Shown here piece by piece: positions 2,574 to 16,331 of a DNA stretch of 64,000 nt. The stretch is taken from positions 2,112,001 to 2,176,000 of the forward strand of contig OZ242214.1 in the NCBI GenBank assembly GCA_965206595.1. Direction: 5' to 3'. Both the position numbers and the translations under genes were made by a program. Every line of letters begins with the position of its first letter. Position 1 is the first letter of the stretch. The notes under the pieces are model-generated. The model worked only from the letters and a program-made list of their open reading frames with translations, did not search any database and was not told where the DNA came from. The DNA comes from Candidatus Latescibacterota bacterium (GTDB lineage: Bacteria > Latescibacterota > UBA2968 > UBA8231).

Positions 2574-3676
2574 GTTTCAATCCGCTCCCCTCACCGAAGC
2601 GAGGGGAGATTTTGTGCCCTGGTACTTGTTTCAATCCGCTCCCCTCACCGAAGCGAGGGGAGATAGCCATGCGCAGCCTGTGGCGGGATGTGACCAGTTT
2701 CAATCCGCTCCCCTCACCGAAGCGAGGGGAGGGAGACAAGCGAGGCTGATCTCGACGCGAGAATGTTTCAATCCGCTCCCCTCACCGAAGCGAGGGGAGA
2801 TTTTCCGGCGGCGAAGCGGAGAAATCCCAACTTGAGCGGTTTCAATCCGCTCCCCTCACCGAAGCGAGGGGAGATCCGTTGACCCCCAGACTGGTGACGA
2901 TCGTAGCCAGGCTGTTTCAATCCGCTCCCCTCACCGAAGCGAGGGGAGATCCCCCGAGGCGGTCGGCGGGATCGATCTTTCTGTTTCAATCCGCTCCCCT
3001 CACCGAAGCGAGGGGAGATCCCGACCTCCTCGACGCTCGGGCCCCGACCTCCTAGCCGTTTCAATCCGCTCCCCTCACCGAAGCGAGGGGAGATATGCTC
3101 GGCTGGCGTAGCGATTCAGCTACTTCCGAACGTTTCAATCCGCTCCCCTCACCGAAGCGAGGGGAGATCCAGAAGGAAGGGGCCGAACTTCCTTGCCAAA
3201 CGAGGGGTTTCAATCCGCTCCCCTCACCGAAGCGAGGGGAGATTCCGCGCACCTGGGCGAGGCTTCGGCTTCCTGGTAGTTTCAATCCGCTCCCCTCACC
3301 GAAGCGAGGGGAGATCGATACCCTGGAGGTATTCGAGTATTTCTCCGGCGTTTCAATCCGCTCCCCTCACCGAAGCGAGGGGAGATCTGTCGTTTATGGC
3401 CACTTCAACCAACATCGGGAGCAGTTTCAATCCGCTCCCCTCACCGAAGCGAGGGGAGATGTAATGGGGTTCTGAAAATTTCCGGCCTTCTTGTAAGTTT
3501 CAATCCGCTCCCCTCACCGAAGCGAGGGGAGATCTTTCTCCGAAGGGAATGAACAAACGAAGGGGGAGTTTCAATCCGCTCCCCTCACCGAAGCGAGGGG
3601 AGATTCTGGAATCCAAGAACGGGCTGCAAATCCCAGCTTGTTTCAATCCGCTCCCCTCACCGAAGCGAGGGGAGAT
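2574..3676 (-). CRISPR. Type I-C CRISPR array, 16 repeats of 37 bp and 15 spacers (17-38 bp)
   Basis: Repeat on minus strand ATCTCCCCTCGCTTCGGTGAGGGGAGCGGATTGAAAC with CTCCCCTC/GAGGGGAG stem and ATTGAAAC 3' end; repeat starts on plus strand at 2574, 2628, 2697, 2765, 2839, 2914, 2983, 3058, 3132, 3207, 3279, 3350, 3424, 3497, 3568, 3640. Confidence 0.99.
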
Positions 3677-3858
3677 TGCTGGTTGCAGTAACCAGCAGAA
3701 TAACAAAGGGTTACACAGACCAATGCGCGATTCGGTGAAATCGTTGCCAGGAAGGGCCTGACCCGACTGTCGAAAACCGCGATAACCTGTTGCCATGCAG
3801 CCACTTTCCAGTTGCGCGAAAGCATGGACAAAACTCCGGCACTCCACTTTCGCGCGGG
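3677..3858 (-). promoter_or_regulatory. CRISPR leader
   Basis: Non-coding gap between cas2 and first repeat; GCGCGAAAG...CTTTCGCGC inverted repeat, IHF-like TAACAAAGGGTTA, repeat-proximal palindrome TGCTGGTT-N5-AACCAGCA. Confidence 0.8.
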
Positions 3859-4149
3859 CTACAAAACCAGTGGTGCGTTCAGGTCCACGGGTTCCTTGAT
3901 TCCGTGATGTTCCGTCTCCTTTCTGGCGTCTTCGTCGATGTGATAAAACCTGAGAGAATCCTGTTTTGGATCGATTTTCTGCAGCAGACGGTTCCTGAGC
4001 GTTGCCCATTCGGTTTTTCCTACCTGACATTCGAACAGCGATTTTTGCACCCGAACGCCGTAATCCTTACAGGCTCTTGCCACTTGGCGCAGCCGCTTTT
4101 GCCCGGCTCGGTCGACAGTGGAAACGTCGTATGCGATCAGGATAAACAT
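3859..4149 (-). CDS. cas2: CRISPR-associated Cas2
   Basis: MFILIAYDVST...RVQKSLFEC...DSLRFY; 96 aa. Confidence 0.97.
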   Translation of the reverse strand: MFILIAYDVSTVDRAGQKRLRQVARACKDYGVRVQKSLFECQVGKTEWATLRNRLLQKIDPKQDSLRFYHIDEDARKETEHHGIKEPVDLNAPLVL

Positions 4150-4198
4150 GCGTCAATCCCTTCAATCCGTTCTTCTCATCAAGCGCGGGGTGATACTG

Positions 4199-5260
4199 CT
4201 ACTTCGAGATGAATGGGATGTAGTCGGAGATGTCGCCGCGAAGTGTTCGGGCCAACAGCCTGGCTTGAACACTGAACACTTGCCCGATACGAATATTCTG
4301 CTTGAACAGGGGGTGCTTTACTTCTGCTTGCTTGCGCCGTTGCCAAGCCTCGATGACCTCCTTCCTTCCCCGGTCGGTGAATTCTACGGCGCCGCCTTCT
4401 CGTTCGCGAAAGTGCTTGGACTCGATCTGCCGACGATTGACGAGGGTCAATGCCAGTCGCTCTGCCAGACAGGGCCGAAACTCTTCCATCAGGTCGAGGG
4501 CGCAGGCGGGCCTCCCGGCGCGCGTCGCATGAAGCCAGCCGACGTATGGGTCAAGCCCCGAGGTCGTCAGCGCGGCGAGGCAATCGTGGCGGAGCAGAGC
4601 ATAGATGAAGGAGAGCAGGCAGTTTATCCGATCCCGGGGCGGACGCCGCGTGCGGGTTACGAACCTGAAATCTTCGCGCTGTTGTTTGAGCATGCATCGG
4701 AACACCGAGAAATACGCCTTGGCGCCCAGGCCCTCCATGCCCCTGATCGGGTCGAGCGCTTCCCGTAGCCCGCAATCTGGGGCAACGGGCGGGGCATTGC
4801 CGAGTTGGTGAATCAGTTGGGCAAGTTCATCAGCCGCGCCCGTCAATGCCTTGCGATCCGCATCGCCATCGGTTTCCCGGCCGGAGCGCAAGAGGTTGGA
4901 GCGTGCGTTTTGCATTTTCCCCGCGACGAACTGCCGGGCGATGCGAGTCGCGTCCCGCGGGCTGTCCGCTGCGGCATACTGAGCACGCCGCAGCAAGTAG
5001 CGGGTGTCTCCACTTCCCAAGACTTGCGCCAAGAGGTAGCCGTTCTCGGTGTGGTAATGCACCGCCACCTGATGATCCCAGCACAGGGCCATGGCCGGCG
5101 GCGTAACCACGACCTGCCCGAACGCGCAAATACTTTCCAGATGGTGAATCGGCACGGTCAGGCGGGTTTGTTTTTCGATCTCGACCCGGAGTGTCAAGTG
5201 ATCCCTGAGCACCACGGTTTTCGGTGTCGTCAAGTAAAGAGTGTTTTGGATAACGGCCAT
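4199..5260 (-). CDS. cas1: CRISPR-associated Cas1 (I-C)
   Basis: NTLYLTT, EGLGAKAYF, RTRRPPRDRINCLLSFIY, GLDPYVGWLH, ALDLMEEFRP. Confidence 0.97.
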   Translation of the reverse strand: MAVIQNTLYLTTPKTVVLRDHLTLRVEIEKQTRLTVPIHHLESICAFGQVVVTPPAMALCWDHQVAVHYHTENGYLLAQVLGSGDTRYLLRRAQYAAADSPRDATRIARQFVAGKMQNARSNLLRSGRETDGDADRKALTGAADELAQLIHQLGNAPPVAPDCGLREALDPIRGMEGLGAKAYFSVFRCMLKQQREDFRFVTRTRRPPRDRINCLLSFIYALLRHDCLAALTTSGLDPYVGWLHATRAGRPACALDLMEEFRPCLAERLALTLVNRRQIESKHFREREGGAVEFTDRGRKEVIEAWQRRKQAEVKHPLFKQNIRIGQVFSVQARLLARTLRGDISDYIPFISK

Positions 5261-5321
5261 GTTTTATCTCCCATTATCGAAGCAAGTGGGGACCTCGCTT
5301 CGCACCGAGAGCCGGACGAGT

Positions 5322-6023
5322 CTATTCGGTAGTATCGAACACTGCCCGATAGGCTCGCCCCAGCGTGGGCGGAGCGCTGGTGATTTCGGGAAGGCAATGG
5401 TCGAAAAGCGAGCACTCCGAACATTGGGGCTTGTGGACGGCTTGGGGGACCACTTCCCCTTCGATCAGTCGGTGCATGGCTTCGATGGCCTGTTCGGTGA
5501 GGCGGCGCAAATCCTCGGTAAATTCCACCTCTCGGCGGCGCTTGCTCTTGGCGTGGAAGATCGCCCCCTTGGGAATGTCTAGTCCGAACATTTCTTCGAG
5601 GCACAACGCTTGCGCGCAAAGCTGGGCGTCGTCGTTGTCGAACTTGCGGCGTTTGCCCTTTTTGTATTCAACTGGATAGAGACTGTTGATATTCTCAGGC
5701 GAAAATCGGGATTTTTTTAGCTTTGAGTAGCTTTTGAATTTCACCTCAACAATATCACACTTTCCAGAAAGGCCCAGCCTTTGGGACCACACCGGCAATG
5801 CCCGAAGCACTTCTGTATCTGCCGCTTTCTCATACCCTGGCACATCGGCCTGTTCATGAAATTGACTGCCGATCAGTGTGTGCTCGTTATCGGCAAAGGT
5901 GCCCTCGACATGAATCAATGCCGCCCGCCGAGGGCAATAGAGGTACTGGTTGATAGCGGAGAGCGGAATGATCCGCCCCTCGCTATCGAATGGGTGGACC
6001 GGCTGGATAACCAATTCACTCAT
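5322..6023 (-). CDS. cas4: CRISPR-associated Cas4
   Basis: LSAINQYLYCPRR, GKCDIVE, PVEYKKGK, QLCAQALCLEEM, C-terminal CxxC-x5-C Fe-S cysteines. Confidence 0.95.
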   Translation of the reverse strand: MSELVIQPVHPFDSEGRIIPLSAINQYLYCPRRAALIHVEGTFADNEHTLIGSQFHEQADVPGYEKAADTEVLRALPVWSQRLGLSGKCDIVEVKFKSYSKLKKSRFSPENINSLYPVEYKKGKRRKFDNDDAQLCAQALCLEEMFGLDIPKGAIFHAKSKRRREVEFTEDLRRLTEQAIEAMHRLIEGEVVPQAVHKPQCSECSLFDHCLPEITSAPPTLGRAYRAVFDTTE

Positions 6024-6060
6024 GTTTCAATCCGCTCCCCTGCCGAATTGAGAGGAAGCA
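6024..6060 (-). repeat. Solitary degenerate CRISPR repeat abutting the cas4 ATG
   Basis: Minus strand TGCTTCCTCTCAATTCGGCAGGGGAGCGGATTGAAAC; the 3' 18 nt are identical to the array repeat; 10-bp direct repeat TTCACTCATG at 6015-6024 and 6072-6081. Confidence 0.9.
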
Positions 6061-6072
6061 TATACGTGCAGT

Positions 6073-7026
6073 TCACTCATGACGCCTGTGTAGGAGAACG
6101 CCAGCGGGCACATCGGCACTGTCCCACCCACATCCAACCTCATAATCGGCGAAGGATTCGGGGAATTCCGCGCCATCCTTCAGTTTCACCTCGATTCCCT
6201 CAAAGAGCTTGTGGGCATGGGCACAGCCGAGACGGGCTTCGCGTTTGTTTTGTTCGGCGTTGTTTTCATGTTGGGTGCCGACATGCTCAAAGTCGTAAAT
6301 ACCTCGCACTACCATTTCACCGCGGGCAGCGGAGCGATCATGCTCGAACATGTGGTTGAGCGCATCGAAAAGGATTTCGAGGTCGGCGTTGGTGAAACCG
6401 GTGCGCTCGGCGAAAGCAGGCGAGACGTAAACCTTGGCTGCGTAGAGAGCGTATGGGACGATGTGCTTATTGCCCATGGTACGTTCTTTGTCGGCATCTT
6501 CCTCTTTGGTGACGGCTCCACGGGTGATGGAGATTTCCAATGGCGTGATCGGATGGTACGACTGGCCAAAGGTGAACTGTACCGGGCCACGCACTTGGCC
6601 CCAAGCAGAGCCTTTCATGATGTCGTCGCCCACGGAAAGCACACCACCAAAGGCGCGAATATCAAAGAACTCGCGACACAGCCATTTCATGGCCACTTCT
6701 TGCTTTTGGTCTTTAGAAGCACCAGAATCCAAACTCTCGCCACTTTTCTTAACGGCGGTTGCGATTTCGTTGCCAAGAATAGCACCTTGCCTGACGAATA
6801 GGTTGAAGCCATTGCCATTGTCGCTAGCACGCTCGGGTGGGAACGTTTCCACGAAGTTGCGCACCTTGCGCTTGAGGCACACGTCGGAGACGATTCCCCG
6901 ATTGGTGTTGTGGTCTTGGCGCGGCATGTTACCAGCATCGGGATCGCCATTGGGATTTCCGTTGGTGACCTCGAAGAGCAGCAAAATATCATGCCGATTG
7001 GTGAGAATGTCGTTGTTTTGACTCAC
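6073..7026 (-). CDS. cas7: Cas7c/Csd2 Cascade backbone
   Basis: NGNPNGDPDAGNMPR, SDVCLKRKVRN, FFDIRAFG, QVRGPVQF, RTMGNKHIVPYALY, MFEHDRSAARG. Confidence 0.97.
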   Translation of the reverse strand: MSQNNDILTNRHDILLLFEVTNGNPNGDPDAGNMPRQDHNTNRGIVSDVCLKRKVRNFVETFPPERASDNGNGFNLFVRQGAILGNEIATAVKKSGESLDSGASKDQKQEVAMKWLCREFFDIRAFGGVLSVGDDIMKGSAWGQVRGPVQFTFGQSYHPITPLEISITRGAVTKEEDADKERTMGNKHIVPYALYAAKVYVSPAFAERTGFTNADLEILFDALNHMFEHDRSAARGEMVVRGIYDFEHVGTQHENNAEQNKREARLGCAHAHKLFEGIEVKLKDGAEFPESFADYEVGCGWDSADVPAGVLLHRRHE

Positions 7027-7049
7027 GATGATTTCCTTTCTGTGGAGGA

Positions 7050-8897
7050 TTATTGGTTGCTTCCCTTTTTTTCTTTTGCTGCCTCGCGGGCGACGCGATC
7101 AGCGGCTTTTTGCTGATAAAAGCCGAGGGCAAAACGCCCCTGCGCGTGCAAATCCAGTGTACGGGGGAATGGGTAGATTTTAGTTGACACTTCTTGAATA
7201 GCCTCGTCTAAGAAGCGGTCATGTCCTTTGTACTTATCGGATTTGCGGATATTGTTGAGATGGTGGCGGTTGAGCTTGAGGAGGACGGGGAACACCGAGG
7301 CTGGCGAAGCCATGGCAGTACCAAAATAACGCTCGACGACTCCGGCCCCTTCGAGCTGATAATCATGTGCCTTGGCTTGGGTCTCGGCGAGTACAGCGAG
7401 TAGGCGTCCGCATTGATAGGCGGCATCTTTCGCTTTTGCGTCCTGTTGTTCAGTAATTTCCATAGTGCTTTCCTTTCGGTTCCGATTGAGAATGAGCTTC
7501 GCCAAGGCGAACCGTGAATGGTTCAACAATGCCGTGCTTCCATCGCGTGCCATATCAACGCGCAGGCGGTTCAACATGGGATGCAAAAGAGCAAGCGAGG
7601 GCGCAGTCCCTTCCAGCGCGGTACGAAACAACTGAGCGGTCACTTCCGTCTGCAAATCTTTTGCGTCGCGTACTGTAGTGCAAGCTAATCGGAACAGGGC
7701 TAGTGGCGGCATCTTTTCTTTGCCGGTGGGCAGGCGCACCGGCTCCAGATCGAGATCGTGGAACCAGCGCCGCAGGTTTTCCGTGGCGGTTTCCAGCGTA
7801 GTCTGCATCCAGTGGCGCACAACAATCCGCCCGCTGTTGCCTGCGAGAGTGACTGCATGGAATTGTTCCTGCCTCAGTGCCTCGCGTTCCCGGCCAGCCC
7901 ACGGAGACTTCAGGAAATCCGCCACTGCTTTGGGGTCGGCTTGGTTGAGTAAAGCCCCAAAAGTGCTGGTGGCGTCCGTTTCATTCCGGGTCCAAAAACA
8001 GCACGATGCTTGCCCTAAGCGGATAGAATGATCGTCGTGGCTAAGCATGGCATTAAGCGCGGTGCAATAGGCGGTGGCCGCCCGGGTGGAAGTAGAAGCG
8101 TTGAGACTTTGCTCAAAACCGTAGGAGGCGAAGGCATCCTTATCAAACGAGACAATCGCCGCGCCAAAGGCTTGGGTGTTGGGTACGCTTTGGATTTTGG
8201 GGTTGTGGGTCAGCGCAATAGGCTGATCGATCTCCCCGGTGACCAAGCAGAGTCCGTGAGGTGCATCCGCCTCGTGGTCTTCATTTTCCTTCTCGAATTG
8301 GCTCCGCCAAAAGGGCCGGATGCGAGTTTCATCCTCCAGCAGCAATTGTTCCTCCACACGGAATGAGAAGTTGTCCGGCCCCATTTTAACCTCTTCCCCA
8401 TCGGCTTTGGTGATCCACCAAGCAGGTTTCTCCCTAGACTTGGCGTCGGAACTGATACCCCAGCGCAAAAAAGATGGCATCTGCCCCGGTTCTGGCTTGA
8501 AGGCTAACAGAGTCTTGAGCGTAGGGCTGAGTGTTTTCTCATGGGCCTGTTCAATCTGTGCCCAAAAGTCATTGTACTTACGGAGGTTGTTCTCATTCCG
8601 GTTCTTCCGCTTCTTTTCGGACATAGGTTGTTCCGGATTTGTGTCCAATCCGAATACAGCCGTAATGCCGTCCGCCATGAACTCGGCCACCCCGCCAGCC
8701 ACCTTGGGCCGAGTTGTCTGTGGGCAATCGAACTCCTTGCCCCGGTTCCTTTCCCCCTCGGTTTCCACCGGTCCCTGCCCCACGAGATTGCCCATCGTGT
8801 CCAAAGTAATGATCCATCGCACCGCCTTGGGTTTGAAAGCTAGGTTATCGAGCAGGTTGCGAGAGTTCGCAAAATCGTTCAAATGTTGCAGCAGCAT
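7050..8897 (-). CDS. cas8c: Cas8c/Csd1 large subunit
   Basis: MLLQHL start, CLVTG, IVSFDKDAFASYG..Q, NSGRIVVR, AYQCGRLLAVL, QGRFALGFYQQ. Confidence 0.95.
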   Translation of the reverse strand: MLLQHLNDFANSRNLLDNLAFKPKAVRWIITLDTMGNLVGQGPVETEGERNRGKEFDCPQTTRPKVAGGVAEFMADGITAVFGLDTNPEQPMSEKKRKNRNENNLRKYNDFWAQIEQAHEKTLSPTLKTLLAFKPEPGQMPSFLRWGISSDAKSREKPAWWITKADGEEVKMGPDNFSFRVEEQLLLEDETRIRPFWRSQFEKENEDHEADAPHGLCLVTGEIDQPIALTHNPKIQSVPNTQAFGAAIVSFDKDAFASYGFEQSLNASTSTRAATAYCTALNAMLSHDDHSIRLGQASCCFWTRNETDATSTFGALLNQADPKAVADFLKSPWAGREREALRQEQFHAVTLAGNSGRIVVRHWMQTTLETATENLRRWFHDLDLEPVRLPTGKEKMPPLALFRLACTTVRDAKDLQTEVTAQLFRTALEGTAPSLALLHPMLNRLRVDMARDGSTALLNHSRFALAKLILNRNRKESTMEITEQQDAKAKDAAYQCGRLLAVLAETQAKAHDYQLEGAGVVERYFGTAMASPASVFPVLLKLNRHHLNNIRKSDKYKGHDRFLDEAIQEVSTKIYPFPRTLDLHAQGRFALGFYQQKAADRVAREAAKEKKGSNQ

Positions 8898-8899
8898 TA

Positions 8900-9703
8900 T
8901 CAGATCCCCTTGGGTTCGAGGATTTCAACTTCGTCGGGATGACAAGCCAAGGTAGAATCCTCTATCTTGGCGCGAAAGAAACAGGCCCTAGGTTGAGCCT
9001 TTTCGCCGACAAAACGCGGGGTATTCTTCTTGGTCTTGGATCCCAATTCATCGGGGCGTTTCCAGCGAAAACCTTGAGCGCGGGCCGTGGGCGAAAAAAC
9101 ATCGTAGAGCATCAAGCCCAAGTCCTCCACGGGCTGTCGCCAACAGGTGCCCAACTCAGTAGCTCGCTGTTCCAAGGTAGCCTGTGGATCATCCACCCAC
9201 TCGAAATCCGCCGCGAATTCACGCATACCCAAAGCAGGCCGGTGGAAGCACTTGCCTTGCTGAGCGCGGCGTTTGAATTCAGCGAAGTACTTCATCGGCG
9301 TATCGGTCGGGCGATCCGCTAACGGCGTGGTACGCAGTTCGGCACTGATGATGTATTCCACCTCTTGTAGCGCCAACATGTTGCGCTGGGTACCATCAGG
9401 CGCACCGCCCCCGGCCTCGATGGGCGATACTTTCTCCGGCTGTGCCATCCATTGGCCGACATTGCGCAGGCTGATGACCGACTGCACTTCATTGCGCCGA
9501 ATCGAAGCCCACCGGCCTCGCCGAATCACTCGGATGGCAGCGACGCAATAGCAAACTTGAGGTTCCCAAAAAACGGCTTCCAAGATTCCCCGTGCGGCAG
9601 AGGGCGTCATCACCGGATAGCTGACGCGCTCCACTTTCATTTCGGGGCGAGTGAAACAGGCCCAATCTCCCCATACTCTCAGGTGTACGTGGTTGTTTTT
9701 CAT
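8900..9703 (-). CDS. cas5: Cas5c/Cas5d crRNA-processing endoribonuclease
   Basis: VWGDWACFTRPEMKVERVSYPVMTPSAARGILEAVFW, RRNEV, GKCFHRPALGMREF, DLGLMLYD. Confidence 0.97.
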   Translation of the reverse strand: MKNNHVHLRVWGDWACFTRPEMKVERVSYPVMTPSAARGILEAVFWEPQVCYCVAAIRVIRRGRWASIRRNEVQSVISLRNVGQWMAQPEKVSPIEAGGGAPDGTQRNMLALQEVEYIISAELRTTPLADRPTDTPMKYFAEFKRRAQQGKCFHRPALGMREFAADFEWVDDPQATLEQRATELGTCWRQPVEDLGLMLYDVFSPTARAQGFRWKRPDELGSKTKKNTPRFVGEKAQPRACFFRAKIEDSTLACHPDEVEILEPKGI

Positions 9704-9716
9704 TTCGATCCCCGAA

Positions 9717-11933
9717 TCATAACAAGAAATCCTCGGTCGGACGTTGGTCGATAACTACGCCGAGATGTTCGTGATAGGCTGCCTCATCCAATACGCTCAG
9801 TTCCATACCGGGCAACAGCGGGCGAAGCAGTCCCATTTTATCAGCCTTCTGAAAGTCGCGCAAATGCAGATTGACCATAAAGCGTTGGAGATCGCGCAAA
9901 TCTTTACGAGTGAAACGCGCACTATCTATTTGGGTGCGCTCCCGGATAGCGGCTACCTTTTCCAAGGCTCTCTCCCTTGGCGCAATTACGGCTCGGGTGT
10001 CATCGGAGATTACCTTCGCTTTTCGGGCTACTTCGCGGAAACGCAATGCCTCCCGATCCTCCTGAATAGAGCTCTCTCGTCGGTGCTGATGATCCGTGGG
10101 TACGTATTGAAAAAGTTCGCCAAAATAGCGACGGAATAGATCCGGCTTACCAGACAAGTCATCCGCAGATAACTGATCCAGCAAACGCGCCGCGATGTCC
10201 GTAGCTACGCGATATACTCCTCCGGGTAGCTTGGCGTCCGTTGGTCGGAATACTACTACACGCCCCTTGTCTGGCAGGAGTCCTTCCCGATTGCAGCGAC
10301 CCGCTGCCTGCACGATCGAATCCAGTGGCCCCAAGGCGCGATAAACCAACGGAAAATCAATATCCACACCGGCCTCTATCACCTGCGTTGCCACCAACCA
10401 GCAAGGTTTGTCGTTTTCCAAACGCCATTGTGCCTCCGCCAGCACTTTGGTACGATGTTCGGCGCACATGGCAGAGGAAAGATGCATCACTCCTTCTAAT
10501 CTTTGTCTATGCAACAGTTCCCACCATTCAGCCGCCTGTTTGCGCGTATTCACCACGCCTAAAGCTTGAGGCTCGATCGACCATTCCTCAGCCAATTCCG
10601 ACCAATCGTTTTCCGTGGACCGCACCTCGTAAACTACCCGGCCTAACTTCTGAAACAACTCGCCAGGCTCCGACGCAATCTCTTTCACTTCCTCCGCATC
10701 GAAACCATTCGACAACGATCTGCTGCGACTAAAGGCTGGTTGGGTTGCGGTGGAAAAAACGAAACTCGCGTGGTAGTGTTCCTTGATATCTCGCAGGATA
10801 TGCAGGAGCGGATTGAGCAGATGCGAAGGCAGCGTCTGCACCTCATCCAGTAATACCACGGAATTCGCAATGTTGTGTAGTTTCCGACACTTGGAGGTAC
10901 GATTGGCAAAGAGTGACTCGATGAACTGCACTGAGGTGGTGACCATGACCGGTGCGTCCCAGTTTTCCGCTGCTAGTTCCTCTGGAGATCGGCATTGCTC
11001 CTCATCGTCATCCCTTGTAACTACTGCCGAATGATGCTCGATCACGATGCCTTCGTTTTTCGGATCAAGCACTTTGCGATATTCGGCGGCGTTTTGCTCA
11101 ATGATTGATAGGTAAGGTATAACCACTACCACACGCTCCATCTCATGTCTCCGCGCATGTTCCAAGGCAAAAGCCATGCCCGATAGCGTTTTTCCCCCAC
11201 CAGTCGGCACGGTTAAAGAAAAGAAACCTGCTGGCTCCGCTGCCTGCGCCAAGCAGTCCTCAAACACTCTGTTGCGCAACCGATTGAGTTCGCCGAAAGA
11301 ATTAAACTTGACTCGGTGCGCTTGCAGTCGCTTCAGCAGCAACGGGGCATTCAGCTTCACCGGACAGCGTTCTCGCCCTGTGCTGAATTGTTCTGTATCC
11401 AGAAAATCCGCGTCAACTAGGCAGGAAAACAGCATTCTCACGTAGAATTCGGTGACGGCCTTATCCTTCTCGGGATTGGCAAATTCCGGCTCGACCAGTT
11501 CTGCGGGAACTTTCCCCAGTTCCTCTTCAAACTGCTTTACCAGAGGACTGAGCCGGTTCATGGCATCGTATTTTTCTCCGCAGACGAATTCCTGCAAATC
11601 ACTCACGTTATGAAGGCCCGCATGATGTCCGCCAACGGCAAACGCCGGTCCCAGCCATTCTCTGTTGAAGGCCAGCGCAGCACCATACACTGCATGATGG
11701 GTTTCAACCGACCCCGGACGCTCCCCTGCCAGATACTCTTGAAAAGCCTCACTATATTTTCCCAGATCGTGGAGCAAACCGGCCAATTTGGCAGCGTTGG
11801 CAAAACCAAGTGGCTCGGCGAATTCCCGAGCATTGTCCGCTACGTTTTGCAAATGCTCGGATAATGGTTGCCAGTGTTCTTGGTTTAACCGCCCCCCAGT
11901 AGCCGTTTCAGCTGTATGGGCGTAATAGTTCAT
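9717..11933 (-). CDS. cas3: Cas3 HD nuclease-helicase
   Basis: YYAH, HDLGK, SCLVDADFLDT, VPTGGGKT, DEVQ, TATQP, QAAGRCNREG. Confidence 0.97.
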   Translation of the reverse strand: MNYYAHTAETATGGRLNQEHWQPLSEHLQNVADNAREFAEPLGFANAAKLAGLLHDLGKYSEAFQEYLAGERPGSVETHHAVYGAALAFNREWLGPAFAVGGHHAGLHNVSDLQEFVCGEKYDAMNRLSPLVKQFEEELGKVPAELVEPEFANPEKDKAVTEFYVRMLFSCLVDADFLDTEQFSTGRERCPVKLNAPLLLKRLQAHRVKFNSFGELNRLRNRVFEDCLAQAAEPAGFFSLTVPTGGGKTLSGMAFALEHARRHEMERVVVVIPYLSIIEQNAAEYRKVLDPKNEGIVIEHHSAVVTRDDDEEQCRSPEELAAENWDAPVMVTTSVQFIESLFANRTSKCRKLHNIANSVVLLDEVQTLPSHLLNPLLHILRDIKEHYHASFVFSTATQPAFSRSRSLSNGFDAEEVKEIASEPGELFQKLGRVVYEVRSTENDWSELAEEWSIEPQALGVVNTRKQAAEWWELLHRQRLEGVMHLSSAMCAEHRTKVLAEAQWRLENDKPCWLVATQVIEAGVDIDFPLVYRALGPLDSIVQAAGRCNREGLLPDKGRVVVFRPTDAKLPGGVYRVATDIAARLLDQLSADDLSGKPDLFRRYFGELFQYVPTDHQHRRESSIQEDREALRFREVARKAKVISDDTRAVIAPRERALEKVAAIRERTQIDSARFTRKDLRDLQRFMVNLHLRDFQKADKMGLLRPLLPGMELSVLDEAAYHEHLGVVIDQRPTEDFLL

Positions 11934-11977
11934 TCACTCAGCTTCCGACCATGTTGTGAAACAACCCCCCCGGCGCC

Positions 11978-12376
11978 TCAAATCGGATGCCGAGCGGCGC
12001 TTTTTATTCCGACGGCCTTCAACAAAACGGCCGGCAGCCGCTTCAGTTCTTTGTTGCGCGGATCGACCTCGAATCCGCCTGACTCCAATGCCGTAACGCC
12101 GAGCAAGGGTTCCGCGCCTTCGTCCCCGTACACGATCGCGCCACCGACGACTTCTCCCTCGAACTCGATCTCGGCGATGGTTATGTCAAAGGCGATGGAC
12201 TTTCCGTCCGGAAGCACGTATTCGCGGCGGCCCCTCGGTTCGAGTCCGATCGCTTCGAGGCGCGCCCTCGGAACGAGTGAGTCGAACGCGCCTGTATCGA
12301 CCAGGAATTTGCCGGTCCAGCTGCGTTGCGGGTCTGCGGGATTGCGGATCGTTACGTCAACATAGGTCGCGCCCAT
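11978..12376 (-). CDS. Clan AA (retropepsin-like) aspartyl protease, AF_0612-like
   Basis: FLVDTGA catalytic motif and PLLGVTALE; 132 aa. Confidence 0.85.
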   Translation of the reverse strand: MGATYVDVTIRNPADPQRSWTGKFLVDTGAFDSLVPRARLEAIGLEPRGRREYVLPDGKSIAFDITIAEIEFEGEVVGGAIVYGDEGAEPLLGVTALESGGFEVDPRNKELKRLPAVLLKAVGIKSAARHPI

Positions 12377-12458
12377 GGTGGTTCTCTCCTGAGTTGGCTG
12401 ATGAATATGGTGCCATTCCGTTCACTGCACAAGAGAGTAGTCTGCGCCAACGACAGGA

Positions 12459-16195: not shown

Positions 16196-16269
16196 AGCGG
16201 TCGAGGCGAAGTTCCTCACCGGTTGCGTAAAGCATTTTCTGAGCGGTCGAGGCGATGTTCCTCACCGGT
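16196..16269. repeat. Two 28-bp direct repeats with internal dyad
   Basis: AGCGGTCGAGGCGA(A/T)GTTCCTCACCGGT at 16196-16223 and 16242-16269. Confidence 0.85.
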
Positions 16270-16331
16270 CGCAAAGACCATTATTGGAGGATTGTCCCGA
16301 AAATGATGGTCAATAAGAAAATTTCATGGTA

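Follow-up and report, generated by a model that had tools for sequence, protein, structure and literature searches.

Degenerate CRISPR repeat copies at the start codons of adaptation genes in a type I-C cas operon as candidate cis-acting Cas5c sites

Several regulators derived from the repeats of CRISPR arrays have been described, namely CreA/CreR, crlRNAs, the long tracrRNA and the phage Racr and Cracr RNAs; in the accounts at hand, they either guide an effector to DNA, which is promoter DNA for CreR, crlRNAs and the long tracrRNA, or sequester Cas proteins, and they are found near cas3, cas8 or cas6 or on mobile elements. In the 64,000-nucleotide (nt) stretch of a Candidatus Latescibacterota genome analysed here (contig OZ242214.1, positions 2,112,001 to 2,176,000; hereafter the window), a degenerate copy of the repeat of the locus's own type I-C array lies between cas7 and cas4 and ends directly at the cas4 start codon, and in related loci such copies recur before cas4, cas1 and cas2. 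Judged from sequence and placement, and with a probability of roughly 40%, these copies may be cis-acting sites for Cas5c or Cascade on the operon mRNA, tuning the synthesis of Cas4, Cas1 and Cas2. A full-text literature search brought up no report in which repeat copies adjoin the start codons of these three genes; the supplementary tables of surveys could hold cases.

Of the described systems, the type I-C crlRNA units, which regulate Nezha, Gabija and other defence genes, share with the window family that they consist of a single degenerate repeat on the sense strand of an I-C operon (10.1101/2024.12.27.630466). In E. coli, Cas5c cleaves such single repeats of I-C operons 3' of the hairpin, and a conserved 11-nt handle is left (10.1101/2024.12.27.630466). 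The units differ in that they are located between cas3 and cas5c and act in trans on DNA, their pseudo-spacer matching a promoter beside a protospacer-adjacent motif (PAM). In the window family, in contrast, the copies abut the starts of cas4, cas1 and cas2, the would-be pseudo-spacer is coding sequence, and no PAM-flanked target was found.

The CreR and CreA mini-CRISPRs (10.1101/2023.03.10.532045, 10.1101/2023.03.03.530964) are likewise repeat-derived elements of cas loci, and through them the effector senses its own abundance relative to CRISPR RNA (crRNA). They differ in autorepressing cas promoters, that is, in acting transcriptionally by a partial match to DNA, and in being reported mostly near cas3, cas8 or cas6 and in long gaps; in the main text of the survey preprint on them, a term search found no mention of type I-C or of cas4, the supplements being outside its scope. 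Racr anti-CRISPRs, including RacrIC1, a working I-C example (PMC10651486), are solitary repeat mimics that engage Cas5c/Cas7-type proteins. They are phage- or plasmid-borne inhibitors of immunity, often located beside acr genes, whereas the copies of the window family are fixed parts of a host operon at gene starts: instead of phage, prophage or plasmid carriage, the element of the window is situated between host cas7 and cas4, and it occupies the same place in four relatives.

With the array repeat as a Cas5c substrate (PMC8524198), the copies share the 11-nt tail and the G-rich 3' arm, and the cas4 copy keeps the cut-site base. They differ from it in their weaker stem, at -0.5 to -12 instead of about -19 kcal/mol, and in being followed by an open reading frame (ORF) instead of a spacer and a further repeat. 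In ribosomal-protein operons and at the MS2 coat protein operator, an RNA-binding protein represses translation via a mimic of its target at the start codon. By analogy, the copies could be regarded as substrate mimics placed on a ribosome landing site in the same operon; the candidate regulator would here be a nuclease as well.

Repeat copies before the adaptation genes

The gap between cas7 and cas4 comprises 49 nt (6024-6072), the last 18 of which are identical to the 3' end of the array repeat and are directly followed by the cas4 ATG, as the original prediction had stated. When up to two mismatches are allowed, this 18-mer is found 17 times in the window, every time exactly (16 array repeats and the cas4 copy), at an expectation of 0.02 from shuffled sequences, and the same 17 are its sole copies in the 7.05-Mb genome. 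The whole degenerate repeat extends over 6024..6060 on the minus strand, with an alignment score of 23 (reached by 0/100 shuffles), and comprises the 11-nt handle (6024-6034), the G-rich 3' arm (6035-6041) and, upstream, a loop and a 5' arm that have both drifted. With 22 distinct array repeats of the family as its basis, a covariance model assigns 21.5 bits to 6024-6059 (E 1.6e-5), its sole significant match within 3700-12400. By alignment and covariance model alike, the element is a degenerate copy of the locus's own repeat in the same orientation. A weak match of the model antisense to cas3 (10779-10816, plus strand; 8.2 bits, E 0.47) is probably due to chance.

The repeat had been described as solitary, but weaker relics also fill the cas4-cas1 and cas1-cas2 gaps. 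A putative relic of 33 nt ends at the cas1 ATG (5261..5293, minus strand; score 13, 0/100 shuffles), its handle being shortened to 7 nt. Another of 35 nt is located in the cas1-cas2 gap (4160..4194, minus strand; score 20, 0/100 shuffles), where no hairpin is left, and a second, partial handle-like copy, read from the sequence, ends at the cas2 ATG (4150..4159, minus strand). The status of these two relics derives from alignment and from a position shared with clearer copies in relatives, not from structure. In DNA run X1, three extra bases at window 5267 restore part of the handle of the cas1 relic (one contig, depth 24.6/24.6); the window sequence and DNA run X4 are without them. The extra bases support a repeat origin of the cas1 relic and reveal an indel polymorphism inside its handle. 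Tandem partial duplications of the handle beside the start codon were observed in four loci, namely in the cas4-cas1 gaps of L010, L015 and L035 (L numbers denote related loci) and at window 4150-4169; they could reflect slippage or the renewal of a decayed handle.

Relatives were collected by a Cas4-based search of species-representative genomes, which gave 37 loci, mostly from metagenome-assembled Latescibacterota, the remainder bearing labels such as Binatia, Terriglobia and Verrucomicrobia. In each locus, its own array repeat was aligned to the 70 nt in front of every cas start, and a score of at least 13 was counted as a match. Among the adaptation genes, matches precede cas4 in 5/38, cas1 in 11/37 and cas2 in 1/35 loci (cas2 in 7/35 at shuffle p<=0.01); among the interference genes, they precede cas3 in 0/20, cas5 in 1/26, cas8 in 0/26 and cas7 in 0/31. 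The reverse-complemented repeat, used as a control, reached this score in 1/213 cases. At a looser threshold (score >=11 and p<=0.01), 18/38 loci carry at least one copy before an adaptation gene. Of the interference genes, only cas5 of L012 is preceded by a clear copy, which ends precisely at the ATG of that gene (L012:2345-2381, plus strand; score 14); cas3 of this locus is in pieces.

Relatives' copies reach covariance scores of 17.1 to 34.4 bits (E 5e-4 to 8e-10). At the cas7-cas4 junction, a copy of the own repeat that ends at, or 2 nt before, the cas4 ATG is also present in L009, L014 (23.5 bits), L015 (23.1 bits) and L035 (17.1 bits), so that the survey of this junction suggested originally did not leave the window's element a one-off scar. 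The clearest copies between cas4 and cas1 are those of L021 (34.4 bits), L015 (32.3), L035 (27.2), L014 (27.0) and L026 (26.4). In L035, the cas4-cas1 gap (L035:6655-6768, plus strand) holds a leader-like stretch, the repeat copy and a half repeat whose TTG may start cas1; the arrangement resembles either a leader-repeat junction that was copied or a mini-array in decay.

Should the copies be neutral scars of recombination, slippage or gene conversion between array and operon, left at junctions where modules were swapped and refreshed in their likeness by the array now and then, their placement would call for a further explanation: every copy before an adaptation gene is on the sense strand, and in 10/26 elements the repeat, when projected to its last base, ends immediately before the start codon. 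The tandem partial handles in four loci, the leader-like piece in L035, the decay of the hairpins and the 3-nt indel polymorphism in the window's cas1 copy are in turn what such scars would be expected to leave. Taken together with the evidence on origin and conservation presented below, an account without any function is considered unlikely.

The layout is confined to a family. From another phylum, 401 genomes were drawn evenly, 30 of which had an I-C Cas1 above the cut-off, yielding 24 loci with an array within the stretch analysed. At a score of at least 11, matches precede cas4 in 0/21 and cas1 in 0/24 of these loci, and cas2 in 2/24 with the forward repeat versus 1/24 with the reverse one, i.e. 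at chance level. Judged by these loci, the layout is a trait of this adaptation-module family and not of type I-C generally. Absence from related I-C loci, which the original prediction had tied to a neutral insertion, is not what was observed among the 38 related loci, 18 of which carry copies. A pattern scan of the phylum (168 genomes) found 13 genomes matching with at most two mismatches, exactly so in the window's own genome (G000) and in the relatives G085, G106 and G145; of the 12 other matches, seven were inspected, four of which are inside arrays, while three are without a nearby array and not at a cas4 start. A loose gapped-pattern scan of metagenomes gave at least 120 stretches, none of which encodes a Cas4 or Cas7 relative among the matches listed.

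Where copies are present, the gaps between genes amount to 40-60 nt, and loci without copies have overlapping stop and start codons (an 8-nt cas7/cas4 overlap, or TAATG for cas1 and cas2). Copies thus open gaps at formerly coupled junctions, at which a new start region is needed. They might accordingly be kept merely as repeat-derived translation start regions, with no Cas protein involved: the G-rich arm and the A/T-rich 11-nt tail would serve as ribosome landing site, and decay of the 5' arm, or selection against it, would free this site from the hairpin. Besides the gaps themselves, the pattern of decay fits such a role (identity to the repeat of 0.38 in the 5' arm versus 0.57-0.85 in 3' arm and handle, hairpin z near 0), as does an in-frame TTG inside the handle that is the likely cas2 start in five loci. 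Spacing points both ways. Shine-Dalgarno (SD) cores peak at 6-9 nt from the start codon in this genome (2417 long ORFs), a range that includes the GGAG of the window's cas1 copy, 7 nt from its ATG; in intact copies, 11-13 nt separate the G-run from the ATG, a distance at which SD motifs of this genome occur at close to background frequency. The claim that the only SD-like run of cas4 lies within the stem of the copy was borne out in that GGGGAG is located in the 3' arm, yet its distance of 11 nt from the ATG is outside the genomic optimum. Conservation of specific handle G's at 77-83% would be needless for a spacer region, and restriction to adaptation genes is left unexplained, save by their nearness to the array. 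In L014 and L015, moreover, the strongest copy, that before cas1, is followed by a separate SD-like AGAGGA between copy and ATG, and a ribosome-site role alone is insufficient for these copies. On balance, this explanation appears somewhat unlikely.

Origin of the copies at the cas7-cas4 junction

A window-type effector module with cas7 directly before cas4 is present in 14 loci, and the element in 5 of these 14. Among the others, the overlap between cas7 stop and cas4 start amounts to 8 nt (L011, L012, L013, L017 and L020) or 4 nt (L044); in L027 and L042, cas7 and cas4 adjoin each other or share a few bases. In copy-bearing loci, the segment of the overlap is present twice and flanks the insert. 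In the window, the duplicated 9-nt segment is found at 6072..6080 (minus strand), where it overlaps the cas7 stop and is preceded by GTC, and again at 6015..6023 (minus strand), as the first 9 nt of cas4. The duplication measures 8 nt in L009 and 13 nt in L014; 12 of 13 bases match in L015, and L035 has an imperfect copy, the mismatches in the latter two loci being at positions 4-5 of the segment. The doubling of the overlap segment around the insert indicates insertion with a duplication that resembles a target-site duplication; by this sequence signature, some 36-49 nt were inserted before cas4, at a junction whose stop and start codons had overlapped.

The duplicated segment also provides what a guide-like crlRNA of the CreR type would use. 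Cut at the copy, the transcript would consist of the handle and, as a pseudo-spacer, the first 30-odd nt of cas4; it could guide Cascade to partly matching DNA, for example to that copy of the 9-13-nt duplication which lies at the cas7 end, and so prevent transcription from entering the adaptation genes. Single-repeat crlRNAs in types I-C and V-A need about 10 matching bases (10.1101/2024.12.27.630466, 10.1101/2024.10.29.618823). The window offers a 9-nt match from position 1, 57 nt upstream, and L014 one of 13 nt; without such a match, the two reading frames would not be preserved in any case. The I-C PAM motif is TTC, yet the self-match site is preceded by GTC, and not a single TTC-flanked seed match exists in the genome, a count below that of 19 of the 20 shuffled controls; in the window, the non-self matches are limited to runs of 9 nt, preceded by ATG, GCA or GTC. 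Mismatches at positions 4-5 in L015 and L035 likewise stand against guidance, as does the consensus scan over 3600-7100, which showed neither a terminator-like 3' end nor a promoter that would define a small-RNA gene of its own; the cas4 frame follows the element directly. For these reasons, a guide-like function is held to be very improbable. An origin of the copies as PAM-defined self-spacers was rejected, the three bases before the start codons differing between junctions.

How the insert arose may be reflected in its likeness to the 5' end of cas4, with p values of 0.056, 0.010, 0.014, 0.015 and 0.123 in the five loci: it may be a tandem copy of the first 57 nt of cas4 that was later overwritten by the repeat. 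The main contribution to this likeness comes from codons 12-18 of cas4 (window 5971-5990, minus strand), a repeat-like motif that resembles repeat positions 13-31 and is located about one spacer length (33 nt) from the copy. The motif is significant in 3/38 loci and present also in loci without a copy; it may be a seed for conversion by the array, or chance.

The five loci with a cas4 copy do not form one clade, according to the approximately unbiased (AU) test (p 0.0006 for Cas4, 0.032 for Cas7 and 0.062 for Cas1), and the trees need 3-4 changes to account for them. The copies of L014 and L015 share an unusual loop of L014's own array. Given scattered carriers and array-like loops, repeated gain, loss via the duplicated segments or exchange of junctions must have occurred. 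The adaptation module itself is found behind three effector modules, that is, the window's kind, one whose Cas7 is about 42% identical, and a divergent I-C-like cas5-cas8-cas7-cas3 module, with the breakpoint at the 5' end of cas4 (L009-L045, one adaptation module and repeat family). A Cas1 match was obtained in 36 loci; in most of them, Cas1 is 81-90% identical to that of the window, the lowest value being 48%. An extra ORF of about 120-160 aa is present between cas7 and cas4 in L010, L016, L018 and L039.

Scattered carriers, own-array loops and shuffled modules are all in line with neutral scarring. Module shuffling with its breakpoint at cas4 could also point to a role at the DNA level, in which the copies would serve as sites for the Cas1-Cas2(-Cas4) integrase, or as homology patches for exchange or excision of the cas4-cas1-cas2-leader cassette that lies between solitary copy and array. 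The adaptation genes are bordered by copies that run in the same direction as the array repeats, and the leader-like piece with a repeat between cas4 and cas1 of L035 would suit such a role. The exact stretches are short, however (18 nt or less), no joint that skips the cassette was seen in the DNA runs examined, and the abutment to start codons would find no explanation; a DNA-level role is therefore judged quite improbable. Even if the copies are only ribosome sites or scars, they document that array repeats were repeatedly copied into cas operons and that the adaptation module and the array move as a unit between effector modules.

A different kind of copy was observed in loci with the second kind of effector module, where the long cas3-cas5 gap holds a repeat copy on the opposite strand: L021:2141-2167 (-) and L024:740-766 (-), both with 24.1 bits, and L030:2424-2450 (-), with 20.6 bits, the bases downstream being conserved. 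They sit where the published I-C crlRNA units sit and are candidates for guide-like regulators.

Conservation, decay and possible function

Among 30 elements anchored at the repeat end, identity to the array repeat declines from 0.85 in the handle over 0.57 in the 3' arm and 0.42 in the loop to 0.38 in the 5' arm, the values of the 5' part being lowered by indels. Comparison between loci of the cas1 class (66 pairs from 12 loci) gives an identity of 0.76 for the handle versus 0.60 for 4-fold degenerate sites of cas1, and in the 32 most diverged pairs the values are 0.80 and 0.53. The cas7-cas4 gap is identical at 42/49 positions between the window and L009, compared with 0.68 at 4-fold sites (binomial P 0.004), and at 44/49 between L014 and L015, compared with 0.73 (P 0.003). 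Handles better kept than 4-fold sites are not expected of neutral scars. Neither is the derived base beside the handle, at the cut site, that is common to the cas1 class, which argues against frequent overwriting by the array. One stem pair is compensatory between the cas4 copies of L014 and L015 (U-A versus C-G).

Cleavage by Cas5c takes place at the 3' foot of the stem and turns the tail into the 5' handle of the crRNA, which is then held inside Cascade; what the enzyme reads is the cut site with the handle downstream of it, and neither the loop nor the 5' end (PMC8524198). The best-kept part of the copies is the part that Cas5c reads, which favours their interpretation as Cas5c sites. The cas4 copy retains the cut-site base, G at position 26, together with the exact 11-nt handle, both of which a Cas5c site is described to need (PMC8524198).

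Cas5c sites in this arrangement could regulate adaptation in the following manner: Each of cas4, cas1 and cas2 would be preceded by a sense-strand mimic of the repeat whose 11-nt handle reaches the start codon. At the cas4 copy, Cas5c would cut 11 nt before the ATG, between window 6035 and 6034, which would detach cas4-cas1-cas2 from the interference genes, remove the sole SD-like run and leave Cas5c, possibly with Cas7, on the first bases of the cas4 message. At copies lacking the cut-site G, binding without cutting may take place, so that these would function as translational operators. The output of adaptation proteins would then be set by the amount of Cas5c/Cascade protein that is not engaged with crRNA. 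Such a scheme presumes co-transcription, recognition by Cas5c, cutting or binding, and a sign of the effect; its proposed direction, that acquisition is limited when Cascade is abundant, is pure inference. Alternatively, the copies may act as a Cascade sponge.

In its most general form, the idea would be that the mRNA of the cas operon is built like a CRISPR transcript and that the capacity for acquisition is set in cis, at the RNA level, by the balance of Cascade protein and crRNA, which is regarded as doubtful. Self-regulation of this kind would be a new mode, distinct from the DNA-targeting CreR and crlRNA circuits. The control of spacer acquisition, which has to be low enough against autoimmunity and yet available when needed, is poorly understood, and a repeat mimic at the start codon of each adaptation gene would, if true, constitute a simpler, purely RNA circuit that links interference proteins to adaptation output.

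A number of observations weigh against Cas5c or Cascade acting on the copies. One is structural: the hairpins are largely lost, with a mean z of -0.58 over 30 elements (cas4 class -0.98, cas1 class -0.87, cas2 class +0.07; eight array repeats -2.7 to -5.4). For the window's cas4 copy, the originally proposed stem between left arm and 3' arm can indeed be drawn, with 8 bp including three G-U pairs and -9.5 kcal/mol in RNAfold for the 37-mer, but 44/200 shuffles fold as well (z -0.73), and the full 49-nt gap prefers a different structure (z -0.07). In the cas1 class, the cut-site G is kept in only 13% of 15 elements, which raises doubt that the cas1 copies are cut; mutations at the stem base impaired one studied Cas5c (PMC8524198). 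The window's cas1 and cas2 relics are too decayed to be found by the covariance model, and at the former, the shortened handle sets GGAG at a spacing that looks like tuning for ribosome binding.

Conservation must also be read with care: elements were chosen by likeness to the repeat, which favours the 3' half, the P values are overstated since kin are not independent, and gene conversion by the array could keep handles alike without function. As for the enzyme, the window's Cas5c, a predicted nuclease, keeps the invariant lysine (K138) but has F45 and Y139 at the two other catalytic positions, as aligned to solved I-C Cas5c chains; such replacements do occur (PMC8524198). Among the assembled contigs of the RNA libraries, none covers any cas junction. 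Library X20 contains repeat-plus-spacer contigs and one 207-nt piece inside cas2, and run X19, whose RNA nature is a guess, one 220-nt piece of cas2. Several X20 contigs of about 100 nt join this repeat (window 3640-3676) to other spacers, and arrays of the repeat family are thus represented in the library; as assemblies, these contigs prove neither transcription nor processing.

Thus, of the Cas5d-driven autoregulation proposed originally, the recurrence of the copies, their abutment to start codons on the sense strand and the conservation of the handle speak in favour, while the decayed hairpins and the loss of the cut-site G in the cas1 class speak against. The observation is firm and has turned out wider than first described, and the mechanism, as far as sequence comparison goes, is plausible.

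The type I-C locus of the window

The window's type I-C operon is complete and runs on the minus strand in the order cas3, cas5c, cas8c, cas7, cas4, cas1, cas2, followed by leader and array; it is assigned to type I-C by cas3, cas4, cas1 and cas2 in one operon with the signature genes cas8c, cas5c and cas7 beside the array. The interference genes, all on the minus strand, begin with cas3 (9717..11933), which encodes an HD nuclease and helicase (NCBIfam cas3_core 113.8 bits, cut-off 102.45; cas3_HD 107.2 bits, cut-off 43.45). Next is cas5c (8900..9703; TIGR01876 116 bits, cut-off 85) for the I-C pre-crRNA endonuclease and 5'-handle binder; the best relatives of its product in the PDB are the I-C Cas5c chains 3kg4, 8dej and 3vzi (E about 1e-37 to 1e-39). 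The genes cas8c (7050..8897; TIGR01863 332.3 bits, cut-off 218.65) and cas7, or Csd2 (6073..7026; TIGR02589 289.7 bits, cut-off 182.25), follow, the stop codon of the latter being at 6073-6075.

The adaptation genes, on the same strand, comprise cas4 (5322..6023; TIGR00372 131.7 bits, cut-off 65), with its ATG at 6021-6023, cas1 of the I-C type, Cas1c (4199..5260; TIGR03640 414.7 bits, cut-off 385), and cas2 (3859..4149; TIGR01573 59.2 bits, cut-off 24.5). The start of cas4, whose first 9 nt are the second copy of the duplicated segment, is common to the relatives, the tblastn matches of which begin at residue 1. Between cas2 and the first repeat extends the leader (3677..3858, minus strand), its 3' end being conserved in relatives.

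The array (2574..3676, minus strand) consists of 16 repeats of 37 nt, in which a stem of 10 bp with a loop of 4 nt precedes a 3' tail of 11 nt. The repeat folds with -19.6 kcal/mol in RNAfold, a value that 0/200 shuffles attain, and tail positions 28-37 are invariant across the 22 distinct array repeats of the family. In Rfam, matches of the array repeats to CRISPR-DR9 are weak and below the gathering score, and nothing was matched at the cas7-cas4 junction.

Co-transcription across the junctions is assumed, for which a scan for promoter and terminator consensus sequences, limited to sigma-70-type sites, provides weak support: on the minus strand between 3600 and 7100, neither kind of site was found, and of the 3 promoter-like sites (4.3 expected) and 9 terminator-like sites (10.6 expected) of the scan, none is at a junction. 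Outside the CRISPR locus, a short imperfect tandem repeat was observed at window 16198-16271, with a period of 22 and 3.3 copies.

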